Below the pieces are notes generated by a model that saw only the letters and a program-made list of their open reading frames with translations, ran no database searches and was not told where the DNA came from. A stretch of DNA of 64,000 bases, taken from contig JAKOTN010000078.1 of the NCBI GenBank assembly GCA_029776255.1, forward strand, positions 1,860-65,859. Direction: 5' to 3'. The DNA is from Pseudomonadota bacterium. GTDB lineage: Bacteria; Pseudomonadota; Gammaproteobacteria; Burkholderiales; Rhodocyclaceae. The position numbers were made by a program, and so were the translations under genes. Every line of letters begins with the position of its first letter. The stretch's first letter is position 1. Below are positions 208 through 46,132 of the stretch, piece after piece.

Positions 208-849
208 TCAGCCGCTGGCCGCATGACTGAGGCGACAACTACCTTGACGCGCGCCGGCACCTTGCCGCGAACGAAAACATTCAGCAAAAACAACGGCCTC
301 TGGAAAGAAAGCGAGAAAATCTTGTTCGAAAGCCGGCGCATTGGCAAGTAATTCGCCGCCCGCCCCGGTCAAACCGTCCTCTCCGCGCAGACGAAACCGC
401 GCCATTTGGTCGAGAGCACGCACCACGGCCAAGGGATCGCGATAAGCGGTGAGCCAATTTTCACGACGCATCGCCGGCAGAATCGCAGCCAGTCGCTCGG
501 GCAAGCAGTGTCGCGCCAGCAAGGCGTAGACATCGGCGCTGAACACTTCAAGCGGGGTCGGCGAATAGCGGTGCCAGTGCTTGGCAAGAAAGTGATCGTA
601 AAACATGTCGATCATGATGCCACTGTAGCGACGACGTTCGACGCTGACCCGCCGTCGGCTACGGAGAAAAGCCGGATGTGTGTCGGCAAAGCTGTCGATT
701 CGCCGGTGCAAGCGGATACCACTCAACACCGTTTCGTTGCAACCGGTCGGCGGTGAAACCAACGGTCCTTTCACGAAATCGCCGAGCAGCCCACCCAGAC
801 GATAGTCGTTATCCGGCCCTGCGAGCAGGGCGTGCGCCAAGAAATTCAT
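208..849 (-). CDS. acpH: ACP phosphodiesterase (AcpH/DUF479 family)
   Basis: N-terminal MNFLAH, GxLLGDFVKG, LHRRIDSFAD and DMFYDHFLA motifs; start moved to ATG 849. Confidence 0.85.
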   Translation of the reverse strand: MNFLAHALLAGPDNDYRLGGLLGDFVKGPLVSPPTGCNETVLSGIRLHRRIDSFADTHPAFLRSRRRVSVERRRYSGIMIDMFYDHFLAKHWHRYSPTPLEVFSADVYALLARHCLPERLAAILPAMRRENWLTAYRDPLAVVRALDQMARFRLRGEDGLTGAGGELLANAPAFEQDFLAFFPEAVVFAECFRSRQGAGARQGSCRLSHAASG

Positions 850-885
850 TTTCGTTATCGGCAGGCGAAGGGGTGATGAAAACAA

Positions 886-1239
886 TCACTTCGGTTCATT
901 GAGGTCCCGCACGACATACCACTCACTACGGCGCTGGGTGGCGAGCCTCACTGTCAGCACCTTGTCGTCGAACAGCGCGAGATCGCCATCGCGACGGTTG
1001 TCGCCTGTGTCGCTGTATTCGAAGCGATAAACGCGCCGTAGACGCAAGCGACCTTCGTCATCGCGCTGAAGACGGAGCGACGTCAGCGCCACGGTATCGT
1101 CGAGCAGCATAAAATTTTCGGACTGGCAGGCGGCTCGAGCCGCCTCGATCGCTGCCGCGCGCGACTGAAAACTGACGTACCAGAACCAGCCAAGTGCCAA
1201 CAAACCCACCAGGCTGATTGCTTCCATCCACGGAATCAT
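886..1239 (-). CDS. DUF3301-family small membrane-anchored protein
   Basis: N-terminal TM helix then AARAAC...LLDDTVAL...YRFEYSDTGDNRRDG pattern. Confidence 0.7.
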   Translation of the reverse strand: MIPWMEAISLVGLLALGWFWYVSFQSRAAAIEAARAACQSENFMLLDDTVALTSLRLQRDDEGRLRLRRVYRFEYSDTGDNRRDGDLALFDDKVLTVRLATQRRSEWYVVRDLNEPK

Positions 1240-1485
1240 TGAAGGTCGCCGAAAAAAAGTCGAAGGGAGAAAAACACGATGGTGCGCGGCCAGCACCCGC
1301 CGTAAACGGATTCGCGCGAGTCATGGTAGCGAAAAAGCACGAGGATTGCCGGACGACTACGCGTCTTTGCCCCGGTTTGCTCACCACGGTGGCAAACAGC
1401 CCATCCATCCTGGCGCATGACATCGTACCAAGCGCCGCTGGAGCAGGCTACAATCCGCCACTCCTTACAGTCGTGCGAGCCTATC

Positions 1486-2007
1486 ATGCCCATTTTCGCC
1501 CTCGGCGCCCGCCGCCCACAGATCGATCCGCAAAGCTGGGTCGCCCCAAACGCCACGGTCATCGGCGATGTCCGTCTGGCAAAAAACGCCTCTATCTGGT
1601 GGAACGCCACCGTGCGCGGCGACAACGACCCGATCAGCATCGGCGAAAACAGCAACATCCAGGACGGCTGCGTTTTACATACCGACGAAGGCGTGCCGAT
1701 GTGCATTGGCCGGAATGTCACCGTCGGCCATCTGGTGATGCTGCATGGCTGCACGGTCGGTGACGGCTCGCTGATCGGCATCGGCTCGGTGATTCTGAAC
1801 CGCGCGGTCATTGGCAACGGCAGTATCGTCGGCGCCAACACATTGATCCCGGAAGGAAAAATCTTTCCCGACCACTCGCTGATCGTCGGCTCGCCCGGCA
1901 AGGCGATCCGCCAGCTCAGCGAAGAAGAGGTTGCCCGCCTGCTGCACAGCGCCGATCACTACGTCGCCAACTGGCAGCGTTATCTGCGCGAACTGACAAC
2001 ACCGTAA
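1486..2007 (+). CDS. gamma carbonic anhydrase-like hexapeptide-repeat protein (YrdA/CaiE/PaaY family)
   Basis: IGDV..ASIW.NA.VRGDNDPI.IG..SNIQDG.VLH, VTVGH.VMLHGC motifs. Confidence 0.85.
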   Translation: MPIFALGARRPQIDPQSWVAPNATVIGDVRLAKNASIWWNATVRGDNDPISIGENSNIQDGCVLHTDEGVPMCIGRNVTVGHLVMLHGCTVGDGSLIGIGSVILNRAVIGNGSIVGANTLIPEGKIFPDHSLIVGSPGKAIRQLSEEEVARLLHSADHYVANWQRYLRELTTP

Positions 2008-38455: not shown

Positions 38456-39481
38456 TCAACCGTTTTCTTGAGCCACGCTCACCCGTACCCGCGTGTCCGT
38501 CTCTTCGAACGCAAAACGCACCGGGAGAAATGCCTCGATGACCTGGCAATTGGTTCGGAGATGCGAAGACAACACCTGCGTCGTGAAGCTCCCCTGCCCG
38601 CTCAGCGCCATCGGCAACAGCAACTGATCGGACAGATATTCGCCAATCGGCGCGCCGCTGTCGCGGAACAGACGCGCCGCGCGAGCGGCGCTGTCGGCCA
38701 CCCTTTCCGCCGGCACGCCGCGTTCGCCGCGGACGGAAAACACTTCCGTCACTTCCGGATAGTCCAGCACCACCAGCAGCACATTGCCCGGTCCCTCGTT
38801 GCTCGGCAGCACGCGCAATTCCTCGTCCAGCACGCCAAGCTGGCTGGCGGCCCGCTGCATCTCGCGCCGGGCCACTTCAGCCGGCACACCGGCCACCACC
38901 CCGATCGCGCCCTGACGACGCAGATCGCCTCGCGTATTCAGGTGCAAGGACCGCCAGGACGCGACCGGCGCCGTCGACGCCAGCATCTCGCCGCCGCCCG
39001 CCGGGTAAAAACCGTGACGCAGCAACCGGATATCCAGCGTCACGCCCATGCGCCGGATCAGCGGCTGCCAGCTACGAATCAGGAAATCCGCCGGCGGCGC
39101 CGCCGGGTTATGCGTGCCGCCGCTGATCCGCAACGTGCTCGGACCATCGGCGAACCACAATGCCGGCAACACTGTCTGCAACACCAACGTGCAACTGCCG
39201 GCCGAACCGATGGCATGACGATAATCGCCCCCGCGCACCGGCCCCGGCTTGAAACACAAGCCTTGCGATCCGGTCGTGGCGCCATCCACCTCGGCCCCGC
39301 ACACCGCCGCCGCGGCCTGCACCGCGGTCAAATGCTGGCGCAGCAGCCCCGGCTTCCTGCGCCCGGCGCGAATGCGCTCGATGACGAAAGGAATGCCGGT
39401 AATCATCGACAGGCTCAAGGCCGTCCGCAAAATCTGGCCCCCGCCCTCACCGCGGGAGCCGTCCAGTTCTATCCAATCCAT
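38456..39481 (-). CDS. rtcA: RNA 3'-terminal phosphate cyclase
   Basis: LDGSRGEGGGQILRTALSLS, GLLRQHLTAV, GGTHNP.APP, HGFYPAGGGE, EYLSDQLLLP. Confidence 0.93.
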   Translation of the reverse strand: MDWIELDGSRGEGGGQILRTALSLSMITGIPFVIERIRAGRRKPGLLRQHLTAVQAAAAVCGAEVDGATTGSQGLCFKPGPVRGGDYRHAIGSAGSCTLVLQTVLPALWFADGPSTLRISGGTHNPAAPPADFLIRSWQPLIRRMGVTLDIRLLRHGFYPAGGGEMLASTAPVASWRSLHLNTRGDLRRQGAIGVVAGVPAEVARREMQRAASQLGVLDEELRVLPSNEGPGNVLLVVLDYPEVTEVFSVRGERGVPAERVADSAARAARLFRDSGAPIGEYLSDQLLLPMALSGQGSFTTQVLSSHLRTNCQVIEAFLPVRFAFEETDTRVRVSVAQENG

Positions 39482-39498: not shown

Positions 39499-40323
39499 TC
39501 ACTTCATTTCCGGCGACACCGCCAGCACCGTGCGCATCAGAAACGCATCCAGTTCGGCGGCGTCGCCTTCCGGCCTTTTGTAATCGGCATCGACAACGGC
39601 TCTCGCCAGTTCGCTTTCGATAAAGGAGTGGATACGCGGCCAGCGCGGGCTGTATCCGGCCTCGTCGGCGCGCATCTTGATTGCCAGCAGGGCGTTGATT
39701 TCGTCGAGCAGCGCCGCGTCCGTCACCAGATGCCCAGCCAGATCGGCGAAGCGCATCGGCGGCTGGCCGAGGCCGCGTTCGATCCACTGCGCCGCGAGCA
39801 GCGGACGCAGCACGTAGAGGTACTTTTTCAGGCGCACGCTGTCGCCCTGCAAGTAGCCGCGAAAGTTGCGATGCGCCATCGCCAGGTAGTGATAGCGCCC
39901 GCGCCTCGGCGAAAACCACTGCGTCGCCAAGGTCCGAATTTCGGTGCTCAACGCCTCGTATTGCCGATAAATGACCGGCGAATCGAGCCATTCGAGCAGC
40001 ACCGGATTGGCCCGCCGCAACAGACGCAGCGCCTTGCGCAACTCCCAGCCACCGACATCCAGTTCGTCGCTGATCGGCAGTTCGATCACGTCGCGCTTCG
40101 GCTCCACGGCGAGATACCAGGGCAGGCGATGGACATAGAGAAAACGCACGTCGTAGTCGCTGTCCGGCGACGCAAAGCCCCAGCCCCGACTGCCGGACTC
40201 GCAGGCGTAAAGCACCGTCACGTCATGCGCCGCCTCGATGTCGGCGAGCGCCTGCATGACGCGCTGGCGGATCGCCGGGTCGATGAGGTGGACGCTCAGT
40301 ACTTTTTGTTTTTCGGTTTCCAT
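39499..40323 (-). CDS. RNA-repair-associated pol-beta-fold nucleotidyltransferase (RlaP/YcgL type)
   Basis: ACESGSRGWGFASPDSDYDVRF, WELRKALRLL...NP.LLEWL.SP, VRLKKYLYVLRP. Confidence 0.82.
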   Translation of the reverse strand: METEKQKVLSVHLIDPAIRQRVMQALADIEAAHDVTVLYACESGSRGWGFASPDSDYDVRFLYVHRLPWYLAVEPKRDVIELPISDELDVGGWELRKALRLLRRANPVLLEWLDSPVIYRQYEALSTEIRTLATQWFSPRRGRYHYLAMAHRNFRGYLQGDSVRLKKYLYVLRPLLAAQWIERGLGQPPMRFADLAGHLVTDAALLDEINALLAIKMRADEAGYSPRWPRIHSFIESELARAVVDADYKRPEGDAAELDAFLMRTVLAVSPEMK

Positions 40324-40336
40324 GATGTTGTCTAAC

Positions 40337-40442
40337 GAAGCTGTAGAAAAAATAGTTTTCCGTAAGCTGATTGTTCGTAACTCATTGAATAATAGATATA
40401 TACATTGGCACAAATGACCGTTTTGGGGTTTTCTACAGCTTC
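40337..40442. mobile_element. 106-bp MITE-like element
   Basis: 14-bp perfect TIRs GAAGCTGTAGAAAA (40337-40350, 40429-40442), AAC duplicated at 40334-40336 and 40443-40445, 37/106 GC by hand count. Confidence 0.75.
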
Positions 40443-40529
40443 AACGTTGTAGATAAGAGGATCTGCGCGGAGCTTTATCGAGCATCGCCCAGCGACCGAA
40501 GGGAGCGGCCTTGACCACGATCGTTAGAC
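40443..40529 (-). mobile_element. integron attC recombination site (R' core interrupted by the MITE)
   Basis: minus strand GTCTAAC (R'') - GGTCAAGG (L'') ... TCTTATC (L') - TACAAC - GTT|AGAC (R'); the barstar stop TAA lies inside R''. Confidence 0.75.
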
Positions 40530-40812
40530 ATACGCGACCTTTGACGCGAATTGTGGATACATTTTTGCCATATCGGTTAAGCACTTATTCATAAGCATTG
40601 CCTCCCCCTGGAAGGCGTAACTCAAACCCAGCCCAGCCTTTGAATTGAAGTATTTCTGGCATCGCAACCAGCACCGTGATTGCGTCCCAAAAAGCGTTCC
40701 AGTTGCAGCCGTACCAGCCTGGAAAATCAAGTTTTTCCATTAGTAAGTGGTGCAATTCAACGGGGGTTTGAACAGCGGATAAATCAATGATGACGCATGC
40801 GCTGCGAGCCAT
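40524..40812 (-). pseudogene. barstar-family (RNase inhibitor-like) cassette gene with a +1 frameshift
   Basis: IIDLS.V....LH..L...LDFPGWYGCNWNAFWDAIT; the C-terminus GEAMLMNKCLTDMAKMYPQFASKVAYV continues in another frame after a G5 run. Confidence 0.75.
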
Positions 40813-41064
40813 ATGAATGTCTAACAGTTCCGTCTTGCCCGAACGTAGGGCCTCCAAAGCCTCGAACCCGGTCAACAATTCAGCCGTACTTTGAGGTTGA
40901 TGCAGGCTGACTCCGGTTTTTTGCTCAACCAGATCAATGATTTCCTCGCGATCGACTCCAAGCTTATTCGCAACATGAAGGGCGCAGGAGCGTGCATGAG
41001 ATGCCCGATGTTTCAAAGGTAAGGATTCATCCTTGACCCGGTTACTGTTTGAACTGAATGACAT
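40585..41064 (-). CDS. AT-rich ORF of unknown function (84 codons) read in frame into the barstar gene
   Basis: ATG 3 nt after the rtcB stop, with AAGGA upstream; no recognisable motif in the first 84 aa. Confidence 0.45.
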   Translation of the reverse strand: MSFSSNSNRVKDESLPLKHRASHARSCALHVANKLGVDREEIIDLVEQKTGVSLHQPQSTAELLTGFEALEALRSGKTELLDIHMARSACVIIDLSAVQTPVELHHLLMEKLDFPGWYGCNWNAFWDAITVLVAMPEILQFKGWAGFELRLPGGGNAYE

Positions 41065-41067
41065 TTC

Positions 41068-42285
41068 CTATCCTTTCACACAAACCACCTGCCGCAACGT
41101 ATGCACCACTTCCACCAGATCGCGCTGGGCGTGCATCACGGCGTCGATGTCCTTGTAGGCCATCGGGATTTCGTCGATCACCTTGCTGTCCTTGCGGCAT
41201 TCGACGTGGGCGGTGGCCTTGATTTGATCGTCCACGGTGAAGCGGCGGCGGGCTTCGTTGCGGCTCATGGCACGGCCGGCACCGTGGCTGCACGAGCAGA
41301 AGGCGTCCTCGTTGCCAAGGCCGCGCACGATGTAGCTGCGGGCGCCCATCGACCCCGGAATGATCCCGAGTTCGCCCTTCTTCGCCGACACCGCCCCCTT
41401 GCGGGTGACCAGTACCTCGGCCCCGAAATGGGTTTCGTGCTGCACGTAGTTGTGGTGGCAGTTCACCGCCTCGGCGTCGGCCGTGAACGGCTTGGCGACG
41501 ATCTGGCGGGCGGCGGCGATCACGTTCGCCATCATCACGTCGCGATTACGGCGAGCGTAGTCCTGCGCCCAACCCACGGCTTCCACGTAATCGGCGAAGT
41601 GCGCGGAGCCTTCCTCGAAATAGGCCAGATCCTTGTCCGGCAGGTTGGCGATGTGCTGGCGCATGTCGGCCTGAGCCAGTTCGATGAAATGGCTACCAAT
41701 GGCGTTTCCCACCCCGCGCGAACCGGAATGCAGCATGAACCAGACCTGATCGGCCTCGTCCAGGCACACTTCGATGAAGTGGTTGCCGGTTCCCAGCGTT
41801 CCAAGATGCTTGTAATTGTTTGTATTTATCAGGCGCGGGTACTTCTCCGTGATGCGCGCGAAGCCCGGCGACAGCACAGACCACATGGCGTCGACGGCGT
41901 CCGGCGGGTTTTCCCAGGAACCCTTATCGCGGCGACCGCGGGTCATCGTTCGCCCGTGCGGCACCGCCACCTCGATGGCCGAACGCAGACCGTGCAGATT
42001 GTCCGGCAGATCGCCGGCGGTCAGCGTGGTGCGCGCCGCCATCATCCCGCAACCGATATCGACGCCGACCGCCGCCGGGATGATCGCGCCCTGCGTCGGG
42101 ATCACGCTGCCGATGGTCGAGCCTTTACCGAGATGCACGTCCGGCATCACCGCCAGGTGGCGGAAGATGAACGGCATTCGGGCCGTGTTCATCAGCTGTT
42201 TGCGGGCGTCGTCCTCGACCGGCACGCCTTCGGTCCACAGCTTGATCGGCTTGCCGTCGGTCACGTCTTGTACTTGATACGTCAT
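41068..42285 (-). CDS. rtcB: RNA-splicing ligase RtcB
   Basis: AVMPDVHLGKG.TIGSV, VGVDIGCG, GTLGTGNHFIE, HSGSRG, HHNY, IPGSMG, SHGAGR, DEIPMAYK. Confidence 0.96.
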   Translation of the reverse strand: MTYQVQDVTDGKPIKLWTEGVPVEDDARKQLMNTARMPFIFRHLAVMPDVHLGKGSTIGSVIPTQGAIIPAAVGVDIGCGMMAARTTLTAGDLPDNLHGLRSAIEVAVPHGRTMTRGRRDKGSWENPPDAVDAMWSVLSPGFARITEKYPRLINTNNYKHLGTLGTGNHFIEVCLDEADQVWFMLHSGSRGVGNAIGSHFIELAQADMRQHIANLPDKDLAYFEEGSAHFADYVEAVGWAQDYARRNRDVMMANVIAAARQIVAKPFTADAEAVNCHHNYVQHETHFGAEVLVTRKGAVSAKKGELGIIPGSMGARSYIVRGLGNEDAFCSCSHGAGRAMSRNEARRRFTVDDQIKATAHVECRKDSKVIDEIPMAYKDIDAVMHAQRDLVEVVHTLRQVVCVKG

Positions 42286-42350: not shown

Positions 42351-42562
42351 TGGTGGACACGGCGGGACTCGAACCCGCGGTAAGCCGCCACCGGGCATTA
42401 CTCCGATGTGCGGAGAAGCTTTAAACGCGCATCATCCCAAGAACCTTACGCAGACCCCGGGACTGCATCTTCAAATACCGCTCTCCACTAAAGCTTTCGG
42501 TTTTACCCTTCACCGGTCTCGTCACTCGTTTACCGGCCGCTCGCCGTTTCGCGTTCGTGCCC
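42351..42562 (-). ncRNA. 212-nt tRNA(Ala)/tmRNA-like RNA
   Basis: 5' GGGCACG pairs with 3' CGTGTCC (G3.U70), A73, CCA; T-arm GCGGG-TTCGAGT-CCCGC. Confidence 0.6.
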
Positions 42563-44046: not shown

Positions 44047-44120
44047 GTCTTGGAGCGGGATTCGAACCCGCGACAGACCGTTTACAAGACGGTTGCTCTA
44101 TCCGACTGAGCTATCCAGTG
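44047..44120 (-). tRNA. tRNA-Thr(TGT)-like element with degenerate acceptor stem (pseudo-tRNA or tRNA mimic)
   Basis: TAGCTCAGTCGGATAGAGC D-arm, ACCGT-CTTGTAA-ACGGT anticodon arm, GCGGG-TTCGAAT-CCCGC T-arm; only 4 of 7 acceptor pairs, no CCA. Confidence 0.7.
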
Positions 44121-44121
44121 A

Positions 44122-44165
44122 TGGGGTGTTCGGGAATCGAACCCGAGCGCGCCACCAGGCGCCCC
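44122..44165 (-). ncRNA. miniature tRNA-like element (acceptor plus T-arm, no anticodon arm)
   Basis: GGGGCGC...TCGGG-TTCGATT-CCCGA-ACACCCC-A. Confidence 0.5.
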
Positions 44166-44290: not shown

Positions 44291-44306
44291 AGCGAAAGCC
44301 GTGCCA
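44291..44306 (-). promoter_or_regulatory. sigma54 (-24/-12) promoter of the rtc operon
   Basis: TGGCACG-gctt-TCGCT on the minus strand, divergent from rtcR, with an AT-rich tract upstream. Confidence 0.8.
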
Positions 44307-44482: not shown

Positions 44483-46132
44483 ATGAAGAAAACCGTTGTC
44501 ATCGGTTTTCTCGGCACTCAACTGGATTACACCGGCAAAGGCAGCCAGCGCTGGGAAAAGTGGCGCCCGACGGTCGCCCTGTGCCAGCAGGATGACCTGA
44601 TCGTGCACCGTCTGGAAGTGATTCACGACGCGCGCAGCCGTGGACTGGCCGAACGCGTCGGCAACGACATCGCCCAAATCTCGCCGGAAACCGACTTCAA
44701 GCGCGTGGAACTGGAATTGCGCGATCCATGGGATTTCGAAGAGGTGTATACCGCCCTGCACGACCTCGCCCGCGCCTACCCATTCGATACGGAAAACGAG
44801 GATTACCTCATCCACATCACCACCGGCACCCACGTGGCGCAGATTTGCTGGTTTCTGCTCGCCGAGGCGCGTTACCTGCCGGCACGTCTGTTGCAAACCT
44901 CGCCGCCGCGCAAGACGGAGGTCGCCGACAGCGTCGGCCGCTACGAAATCATCGACCTCGACCTGTCGCGTTACGACCGTATCGCCCAGCGTTTCGCCCG
45001 CGAACGCGACGACGGCCTGTCTTTTCTCAAATCCGGCATCGCCACGCGCAACCCGGCATTCAACCGGATGATCGAGCAGATCGAGCGGGTTGCCGGTCGT
45101 TCGCGCGCGCCGATGCTGCTGGTCGGCCCGACCGGCGCCGGAAAGTCTTTCCTGGCTCGCCGCGTTTTTGAATTGAAACGCCAGCGCCAACAACTGAAAG
45201 GGCGTTTCATCGAAGTGAACTGCGCCACTCTGCGTGGCGATTCGGCGATGTCCACACTCTTCGGACACAGCAAGGGCGCGTTCACCGGTGCGCAACAGGA
45301 CCGGCCGGGACTGTTGCGGTCCGCCGACGGCGGTCTGCTCTTTCTGGATGAAATCGGCGAGCTCGGTCTCGACGAACAGGCGATGTTACTAAAAGCCATT
45401 GAAGAGAAACGATTTTTCCCCTTCGGTAGCGATCTCGAGGCACGCAGCGACTTCCAGTTGATCGCCGGAACGCATCGCGACCTGCGGCAACGGATGCGGC
45501 AAGGAAAATTCCGGGAAGACCTCTACGCGCGGATCAACCTGTGGACTTTCGATTTGCCCGGCCTCGCCGCCCGCCCGGAGGATATCGAACCCAACCTCGA
45601 TTACGAACTGGAGCGTTTTGCCGCGCAAAGCGGCCAGCAGGTGCGCTTCAACATCGAGGCCAAGCGCCGTTATCTGGCTTTCGCGACCTCGGCGGCGGCT
45701 CGCTGGCACGGGAATTTCCGCGAACTCGGCGCGTCCCTCACCCGCCTGGCCACGCTGGCCCCCGCCGGGCGTATCACCGAAGCCGATGTTGCCGACGAAA
45801 TCGCCCGTCTCACCACTGCCTGGAGCGACGAACCGAATACCGACGACGCTTGCGCCCGGCTGCTCGCCGGGGACGCGGATAAACTCGATCTCTTCGACCG
45901 CTGCCAGCTCAACACCGTCATCGCCGTCTGCCGTACCAGCCATAGTCTGTCGGAAGCCGGGCGTCGCCTGTTCGCCGTCTCCCGCGCCGAGAAAAGACAA
46001 AGCAACGACGCGGACCGACTACGCAAATACCTGGCGCGCTTTGCTCTCGGATTTGAAATGCTGCGTGACGAGATTATCCAAACAAAACAGCGCTCGGAAA
46101 GGCCAGCGCGCGAGCACTCCGAAATCGCGTGA
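44483..46132 (+). CDS. rtcR: sigma54 enhancer-binding regulator RtcR (CARF + AAA+ + HTH)
   Basis: TVVIGFLG..LD...RWEKWRPTV, DPWDFEEVY, HITTGTHVAQIC, GPTGAGKS, GAFTGA, NDADRLRKYLARF. Confidence 0.93.
   Translation: MKKTVVIGFLGTQLDYTGKGSQRWEKWRPTVALCQQDDLIVHRLEVIHDARSRGLAERVGNDIAQISPETDFKRVELELRDPWDFEEVYTALHDLARAYPFDTENEDYLIHITTGTHVAQICWFLLAEARYLPARLLQTSPPRKTEVADSVGRYEIIDLDLSRYDRIAQRFARERDDGLSFLKSGIATRNPAFNRMIEQIERVAGRSRAPMLLVGPTGAGKSFLARRVFELKRQRQQLKGRFIEVNCATLRGDSAMSTLFGHSKGAFTGAQQDRPGLLRSADGGLLFLDEIGELGLDEQAMLLKAIEEKRFFPFGSDLEARSDFQLIAGTHRDLRQRMRQGKFREDLYARINLWTFDLPGLAARPEDIEPNLDYELERFAAQSGQQVRFNIEAKRRYLAFATSAAARWHGNFRELGASLTRLATLAPAGRITEADVADEIARLTTAWSDEPNTDDACARLLAGDADKLDLFDRCQLNTVIAVCRTSHSLSEAGRRLFAVSRAEKRQSNDADRLRKYLARFALGFEMLRDEIIQTKQRSERPAREHSEIA

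Follow-up and report, generated by a model that had tools for sequence, protein, structure and literature searches.

The window, the 64-kb stretch of DNA analysed here, belongs to a 69.7-kb contig (JAKOTN010000078.1) of a bacterium of the family Rhodocyclaceae (assembly GCA_029776255.1). Its minus strand carries an RNA-repair (Rtc) operon that is interrupted between rtcB and RlaP by a solitary integron gene cassette with a barstar-like gene. The operon is ordered SPFH, RtcB, then RlaP and RtcA, and its RtcB protein falls into a 90% cluster named Azonexus/Azovibrio, family Rhodocyclaceae. The rtcB gene (405 amino acids (aa), 41068–42285; Pfam RtcB PF01139, E = 2.7e-129) is the last conserved host gene ahead of the insert; its DNA homology with relatives extends up to the stop codon and then ceases. 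It is followed by N84 (40826–41064), the 5′ piece of a host N84::RlaP gene as judged from its homologues and from the orthologue P0076, then by the cassette, a 106-nt inverted-repeat element and the RlaP domain (274 aa, 39499–40323; PF10127, E = 1.6e-94). The rtcA gene (38456–39481; Pfam RTC and RTC_insert) lies downstream of RlaP. The rtcR gene (44483–46132, plus strand), whose RtcR domains were confirmed by Pfam, diverges from the operon. A sigma-54 promoter-like sequence TGGCACGGCTTTCGCT (44291–44306, minus strand), located ahead of the operon and pointing away from rtcR, was found by pattern matching with one mismatch; it reads TGGCAC-N5-TTCGC at 44306–44291.

Several motifs define the cassette on the minus strand, which reads ...GAACTGTTAGACATTCATATGGCTCGC... 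at the 5′ boundary. As the initial annotation of this DNA described, the core GTTAGAC (40825–40819) is separated by 6 nt (ATTCAT) from an ATG at 40812. An inverse core GTCTAAC stands at 40529–40523 with TAA (40526–40524) within it. The motif GGTCAAGG at 40516–40509 and TCTTATC at 40458–40452 occupy the L″ and L′ positions of an attC recombination site; L′ is followed by the spacer TACAAC and GTT (40445–40443), and a second GTTAGAC is present at 40336–40330. GTCTAAC (R″) is complementary to GTTAGAC at the 5′ end of the cassette and at 40336–40330, the match being perfect over 9–11 nt. Counted on both strands of the window, GTTAGACA occurs three times, all three at this locus, against an expected 0.44. 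Since TGTCTAACGA and TCGTTAGACA also form a perfect inverted pair of 10 nt, the motif pattern lies beyond chance.

The limits of the mobile unit were set by DNA alignment with cassettes from the arrays L030/L031. G|TTAG marks the beginning of the homology and CAAC(G/A)G|TT its end, which in the window is 40445|40444. Because it stops at G|TT on both sides, the mobile unit is 40824–40445, a cassette of 380 nt on the minus strand that runs from TTAGACAT to CAACG. DNA identity to the array cassettes is about 90% in the open reading frame (ORF), and the homology continues through attC. G+C content is 0.47–0.52 in the cassette and 0.38–0.52 between rtcB and RlaP, compared with 0.62–0.68 in the flanks. 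The cassette has the orientation of the operon and no promoter of its own: neither a promoter nor a terminator consensus was found in the insert, which agrees with the promoterless layout proposed in the annotation. An Rfam search of the insert returned no family, and its RNA fold is ordinary (z −1.5).

A database search gave P0002 and P0003 as the closest homologues of the barstar product, with 78% and 75% identity, respectively; both are 95–96 aa long and are located in metagenomic cassette arrays. L030/L031 contain three successive cassettes with attCs that score 47–58 bits against a covariance model (CM) of the attC family. In L042/L043 the barstar cassette is preceded by a clear attC (47 bits with the same model), and in L043 it starts with ...AAACG|TTAGGCATTCATATGGCTCGCAAC. 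The search for this cassette in true integron arrays, suggested in the annotation, was thus positive. As a separate observation, the attC of the P0003 cassette (L043, 1140–1400) leaves the family after GCCGCTCCC and continues with about 250 nt of AT-rich sequence, which may be a further insertion into an attC.

The genome also encodes a true integron integrase, IntI, on contig C127 (TIGR02249, 494 bits; cut-off 265), and a low-GC cassette array adjoins it. No integron integrase was found on the contig of the window, as the annotation had stated for the window itself. At least 14 attC sites of the genome form one family, many of them sharing ...GGACGCTGCGCGATAAAGCCGCGCAG...ACGTTRG. Besides the intI contig, at least six large contigs have sites of this family at their ends, the contigs that bear them being C127, C71, C88, C139, C61, C121, C60, and C159. 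This spread over contig ends suggests either several attC clusters (CALINs) or one fragmented array.

The split N84::RlaP gene and its empty site

Homologues of N84 are proteins of 87–102 aa with the invariant motif RASHARSCALHVANKL. They stand alone, in unrelated contexts, in Roseateles and others, among them many Betaproteobacteria. The AlphaFold model of N84 is all-helical, with a predicted local distance difference test (pLDDT) score of 87, and searches of Pfam, NCBIfam, PDB sequences and PDB folds gave no match for this sequence of about 80 aa. When the two flanks of the insert were joined and used as a query, the search returned P0076, a natural 358-aa N84::RlaP fusion with 17 members on 6 contigs. 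At the locus L068 the gene for P0076 (4001–5077) stands in the order SPFH, zf_Tbcl, RtcB, N84::RlaP, RtcA.

L068 is colinear with the window across the junction. The left flank of the window ends with ...GGGCAAGACGGAACTG, and the right flank, (G)TTAGACAACATCATGGAAACC, runs on without a gap against ...GGGTAAAGCCCAACTGTCGAATGAGACGATGGAAACC of L068. From this colinearity the insert is exactly 489 nt long (40824–40336) and comprises the 380-nt cassette, TT, the 106-nt element and a G. The joined flanks of the window yield an ORF of 358 aa, the length of P0076. The insertion point is CTG|TT in the linker between N84 and RlaP; L068 reads CTGTCG there and its ORF is uninterrupted. The copy of GTTAGAC at 40330–40336 (minus strand) is read as a duplicated G and the native linker TTAGAC(AACATC) ahead of the RlaP ATG, aligned ungapped with GTCGAATGAGACG ATG of L068, and the presumed host linker at the junction in the window is CTGTTAGACAACATC. 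RlaP is now severed from N84, and no Shine-Dalgarno sequence was found ahead of its ATG at 40323.

These results establish an exact empty site for the insert in an orthologous operon and uphold the annotation's proposal of capture at a secondary site, here a non-integron GTT; the comparison of rtcB–RlaP junctions in relatives revealed no ancestral barstar gene. In other relatives rtcB is followed directly by rtcA or by RlaP, again with no barstar gene, and a search of 39 other genomes of the genus did not find the arrangement with barstar in the operon.

The interval between rtcB and rtcA varies further among relatives. In the closest GTDB representative (L018; G004:C105, about 490–1500, minus strand), a low-GC ORF (about 290 aa) without relation to these genes starts 3 nt past the rtcB stop, and the interval also holds an internally deleted, frameshifted RlaP remnant and no attC. 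The rtcB–rtcA junction is a hotspot of change, as L018 illustrates. A Logan contig (L029, 1–1048) shares 92–98% DNA identity with the window in RlaP and 56–84% in N84; another gene lies upstream and its RlaP carries a 2-nt deletion. The N84–RlaP module therefore looks mosaic. The 243 nt between rtcB and GTTAGAC, in which GGTCAAGG and a motif resembling GCGAATAAGC recur, were also considered as a second cassette or a degenerate attC. This was rejected: the segment is the N84 domain, which has homologues and is native in L068. Elsewhere in the operon, tRNA-like and tmRNA-like elements are present ahead of rtcB and in the leader of the rtc operon (42351–42562 and 44047–44165); ARAGORN predicts a tRNA-Thr(UGU) at 44047–44120, and the Rfam tmRNA matches are below threshold.

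Decay of the barstar gene and of the attC site

The first frame of the barstar ORF (40585–40812, minus strand, 75 codons) matches profile positions 3–67 of 96 in PF01337 with 41.6 bits, above the cut-off of 23.4, and the match rises to 46.6 bits when the stop is read through. The barstar-like identity given in the annotation is thereby confirmed. An intact full-length barstar frame of about 90–100 aa is not present. The frame from ATG 40812 ends after 75 codons at TAA 40587–40585, and the C-terminal 27 codons (EAMLMNKCLTDMAKMYPQFASKVAYV*; 40524–40604, minus strand) lie in a different frame, delimited by an ORF at 40730–40524 and by the alignment with P0002; the stop of this second frame falls inside R″. 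The annotation had the gene end within the inverse core. A TAA does lie within GTCTAAC, but the ORF that begins at ATG 40812 stops before reaching it.

The break was traced to the site CAGGGGGAGG (40601–40610, minus strand), which is longer by one base than its counterpart in the array homologue: the window reads CCAGGGGGAGG (40610–40601) where the homologue has CC-TGGGGAGG (alignment A1). The break falls behind residue 68 of barstar and costs the protein its final 27 residues, a segment that every homologue of 95–98 aa conserves. When an X is placed between the two frames, the resulting product aligns over its full length with P0002 (95 aa) at 81% identity. In the conserved AITGL motif the window has Val, whereas all homologues have Gly, as does a second assembly, L041 (NCBI metagenome GCA_054403495.1). 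L041 is otherwise 99.8% identical to the window and has the same frameshift and the same 106-nt element. No stop codon precedes ATG 40812 in its frame, which is open from ATG 41064; the ORF so obtained has 159 aa, and residues 1–84 do not belong to barstar. No Shine-Dalgarno sequence was detected ahead of ATG 40812.

Compared with the Barstar family PF01337 and with orphan immunity genes carried in integron cassettes, the cassette gene scores above the Pfam cut-off and, once joined, retains its identity to intact cassette homologues; it differs in its broken frame, in the replaced Gly and in having no neighbouring RNase gene. The truncated product has probably lost any activity as an inhibitor. 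Elsewhere in the genome (C133:94660–95366), an intact barnase (PF00545, 81 bits) is paired with a long-form barstar (PF01337, 82 bits), which belongs to a different and longer subfamily than the cassette copy.

The attC relic occupies 40443–40531 on the minus strand, with R″ at 40529–40523, L″ at 40516–40509, L′ at 40458–40452 and G|TT at 40445|40444. As it stands its R′ reads GTTGAAG, because the 106-nt element comes right after GTT; deletion of the element and one GTT recreates R′ as GTTAGAC. A profile of seven resident attCs, from which the window site was excluded, recovered the site by nhmmer with an E-value of 1.3e-7 genome-wide, and it was the sole hit on the contig. The reconstructed attC is identical to the resident site C71b at 67 of 87 positions (77%), and the window attC matches the L030 attC at 67 of 89. 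The CM (R1) was built from 17 attCs, 13 of them resident and four from the L030/L031 and L042/L043 arrays, with 23 pairs. Covariation supports this structure: 84.6% of cells are paired, 12 pairs show double changes and none of 500 shuffles was as good. Training sites score 47–85 bits and unseen sites 22–31 bits, and a scan of the window with the model found no other attC.

Minimum-energy folds of the bottom strand were then compared with those of 11 resident sites. The window site folds with −12.2 kcal/mol when reconstructed and with −8.1 kcal/mol as it stands. Eight of the resident sites lie at −16 to −25 kcal/mol, and the other three (C88b, C139, and L030_c2) between −11 and −13. In the fold of the reconstructed site the R box is formed and the L box is absent. 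The L030 homologue forms an L box GGTAAGG/CCTT-GACC where the window has GATAAGAGG; base pairing between L′ TCTTATC and L″ is poor, and the inner stem is altered by substitutions. The R″-L″...L′-R′ layout read by the annotation holds for the positions of the motifs and for the complementarity of R″ and R′, and less well for the pairing of L′ with L″. The site is an attC by descent that is structurally degraded and interrupted, and the cassette has probably lost the ability to be excised.

A 106-nt inverted-repeat element found in attC sites

The element that splits the R′ core of the attC (40337–40442, minus strand; inverted repeat I1) is 106 nt long, has perfect 14-nt terminal inverted repeats (GAAGCTGTAGAAAA) and is flanked by GTT on both sides. 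No further copy was found in its own genome or in the 39 genomes of the genus. Scans with the exact termini retrieved at least six further copies of 97–105 nt, three in Elusimicrobia metagenome-assembled genomes and three in JGI metagenomes: L044 4427–4531, L045 6264–6362, L046 4785–4889, L047 322–420, L048 122–218, and L049 3448–3544. At least seven copies are thus listed, all non-coding and 97–106 nt in length, with invariant termini of 14–15 nt, GAAGCTGTAGAAAA(A). Their hosts are unrelated and include Betaproteobacteria, Elusimicrobia and metagenomes.

The surroundings of the copies are alike. All seven are flanked as ...(A/G)CGTT[element]GTTNNNN, and the right-hand 7-mer fits the core GTTRRRY in six, the exception being L045 with GTTCGAC. 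A recognisable attC with R″ upstream accompanies six of the seven copies; no R″ was found near the copy in L044. In one case the interrupted attC is the first one next to an intI-like gene. An interior motif, TCAAYRAGTTAC, is common to four copies and has the same orientation relative to attC in each.

With its terminal repeats, flanking direct repeat, several copies and absence of coding capacity, the element has the features of a miniature inverted-repeat transposable element; the flanking GTT repeat would also arise from an integrase-type insertion. An autonomous, transposase-coding partner was not found: among the matches listed, a terminal 15-mer gave single hits near the control rate in 400 Pseudomonadota genomes. 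Scans of viral contigs for the element returned nothing relevant. We read the element as an attC-specific miniature transposable element.

Two classes of attC-targeting element are known. Both the insertion sequence (IS) group IS1111-attC and the group IIC-attC introns target the antisense strand of attC, close to its 5′ end (PMC3001079). In IS1111 members, which code for a transposase and a seekRNA, the repeats of 11–13 bp are subterminal and have extensions of 7 and 3 bp (PMC11187229). The 106-nt element resembles both classes in recurring in attC sites and, in the four copies that share the motif, in a single orientation. It differs in being only about 100 nt long and non-coding, in having terminal repeats of 14–15 nt and in its position at the 3′ GTT crossover. 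The sequence beyond its repeats also varies from one attC to the next, which together with insertion at the 3′ GTT sets it apart from IS1111-attC. We tentatively propose, at somewhat below even odds, that these copies represent an undescribed non-autonomous family of about 100 nt, with invariant repeats, that inserts at the G|TT crossover of the attC 3′ end, apparently in one orientation, and is present in distant phyla. Such a family would add a third class to the attC-targeting elements, so far comprising IS1111-attC and the group IIC-attC introns, and no earlier class is directed at the crossover itself; by splitting the R′ core it would freeze cassettes in place.

Alternatively, the element travels with cassettes as part of a composite attC. 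A minor rival is that it is itself an ORF-less mini-cassette moved by IntI. Two points argue against a mini-cassette: the element lacks an R″/R′ pair, as AAC flanks each of its ends on the bottom strand, and its termini are invariant, which is not typical of attC sites. Two other possibilities were discarded. The 106-nt stretch could have been a native host spacer, supplying a TAG stop for N84 after the junction, but it is absent from the colinear L068, and there are six other copies, at least five of them in recognisable attCs. Entry of the element into the host gene first, followed by the cassette, was set aside because the recurrent target of the element is attC.

Origin and consequences of the insertion

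Taken together, we consider it rather probable, at about 80%, that the insert is a solitary cassette of the resident attC family, probably placed by IntI at a G|TT in the host linker, which split N84::RlaP, and now in decay. That it is a genuine integron cassette with an attC, as first annotated, is upheld by the match to the resident attC family, by the occurrence of this cassette in arrays and by L068, where the site is empty. Integron integrases insert cassettes at 5′-GWT-3′ genomic sites (attC × attG), which gives rise to isolated cassettes, or SALINs (bioRxiv 10.1101/2022.09.11.507474; IntegronFinder 2.0, PMC9024848), and host promoters can drive the expression of cassettes inserted in this way, which can also disrupt genes (bioRxiv 10.1101/2022.09.11.507474). 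The target CTG|TT agrees with the published 5′-GWT-3′ attG consensus, and a single attC, no intI or second attC nearby, a GWT site and an empty site in a relative are all found here.

In the proposed course of events, the integrase most likely inserted the barstar cassette by recombination between its attC and a genomic site, the G|TT in the linker of the 358-aa N84::RlaP gene between rtcB and rtcA; catalysis by IntI is suggested by the exact G|TT junctions together with a matching resident integron. The insertion split N84::RlaP, leaving N84 in frame into the cassette and RlaP with an ATG that lacks a ribosome-binding site, and the cassette would be passively transcribed with the sigma-54/RtcR operon. 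Its decay comprises the +1 frameshift in barstar, the Gly to Val replacement, mutation of the attC L box and inner stem, and occupation of the R′ GTT by the 106-nt element, which probably locks the cassette in place.

The locus shares with known SALIN/attG insertions the single cassette and single attC, the GTT site, the orientation suited to transcription from a host promoter and the disruption of a host gene. It differs in being a natural case with an exact empty-site orthologue and a complete integron of the same attC family in the genome; moreover, its target resembles a full core (GTTAGAC), and its cassette is degraded with an interrupted attC. Fused or domesticated cassettes, known for loss of attC function and polycistronic fusion (PMC4670013), are similar in that the cassette ORF is in frame with an upstream ORF and the attC is losing its function, whereas here a host gene takes the place of the upstream cassette and the frameshift truncates the fused product.

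Several observations weigh against this account. The right flank GTTAGACA is identical to the R′ of the cassette, a coincidence of about 1 in 1000 for a random GTT unless the integrase prefers core-like sites. The equal ORF lengths lead to TTAGACA being read as native linker on the host side, and thus to a core-like GTTAGAC target; the linker of L068 itself reads GTCGAAT, so that the native GTTAGAC is deduced from equal ORF length. The cassette and the element may also have entered together in one event. The CM gave no hit on the site as it stands with default filters, and with filters off it gave 10.3 bits (E = 0.33 in 6 kb); the low score is explained by the changed L box and the substituted inner stem, as seen in the bottom-strand folds. 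Finally, the frameshift is documented by the window and L041, and these two assemblies possibly derive from one population.

An adaptive reading is that the capture placed a working RNase inhibitor, either alone, as offered in the annotation, or as an N84–barstar fusion, under RtcR/sigma-54 control, so that repair and inhibition would be obtained from one transcript. In its favour, cassette and operon share one orientation, there is a sigma-54-like promoter ahead of them, and the insert is free of terminator-like sites; being in frame with N84, barstar would be translatable from the N84 start and ribosome-binding site, and its helix-2 motif WDAIT is kept. Nevertheless, the +1 frameshift, present in both assemblies, deletes the last 27 residues that the 95–98-aa homologues conserve, the conserved Gly is replaced by Val, and ATG 40812 has no Shine-Dalgarno sequence of its own. 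The attC is degraded, the N84::RlaP fusion of the orthologue is destroyed, an intact barnase/barstar pair already exists elsewhere in the genome, and the arrangement was not found in the 39 other genomes of the genus. The idea is accordingly improbable and the annotation's claim was not sustained.

Marginally less credible still is arrival without an integrase, either as an array fragment (the cassette with the TTAGACA of the next cassette) through illegitimate or homology-assisted recombination, or along with an acquired N84–RlaP module. A fragment that carried the start of a following cassette would give GTTAGACA at both ends, as is seen, and the lower G+C content of N84 with its 56–84% DNA identity to L029, against 92–98% for RlaP, indicates mosaicism. 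However, the joined flanks encode exactly 358 aa with no extra bases, which makes TTAGACAACATC host linker rather than imported sequence, and both junctions fall exactly at G|TT. That barstar is an ancestral member of the rtc operon with attC-like features by chance or convergence, a notion favoured by its position in the operon alone, can be dismissed, as relatives have rtcB followed by rtcA, RlaP or N84::RlaP without barstar, the gene and its attC are homologous in DNA to array cassettes and match the resident attC family (E = 1.3e-7), and the empty site in L068 refutes it.

The solitary cassette, probably inserted by IntI, is plausibly transcribed together with rtcBA, given that no terminator-like site was found within the insert, and its present state is most likely neutral to harmful and decaying. 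The insertion is of a known kind, a natural counterpart of SALIN/attG events, and the 106-nt element is possibly a new attC-targeting element. The locus provides a natural example of the cassette insertion into genomic GTT sites that had been shown in the laboratory, complete with its donor family, array copies and exact empty site, and it illustrates the usual fate of such insertions, in which a host gene is cut and the cassette decays. It gives no evidence for a coupling of RNA repair with RNase inhibition. The N84::RlaP fusion links an uncharacterised family of small helical proteins to the Rtc pathway, and an element that recurs at the attC crossover in distant phyla could affect the mobility of cassettes.

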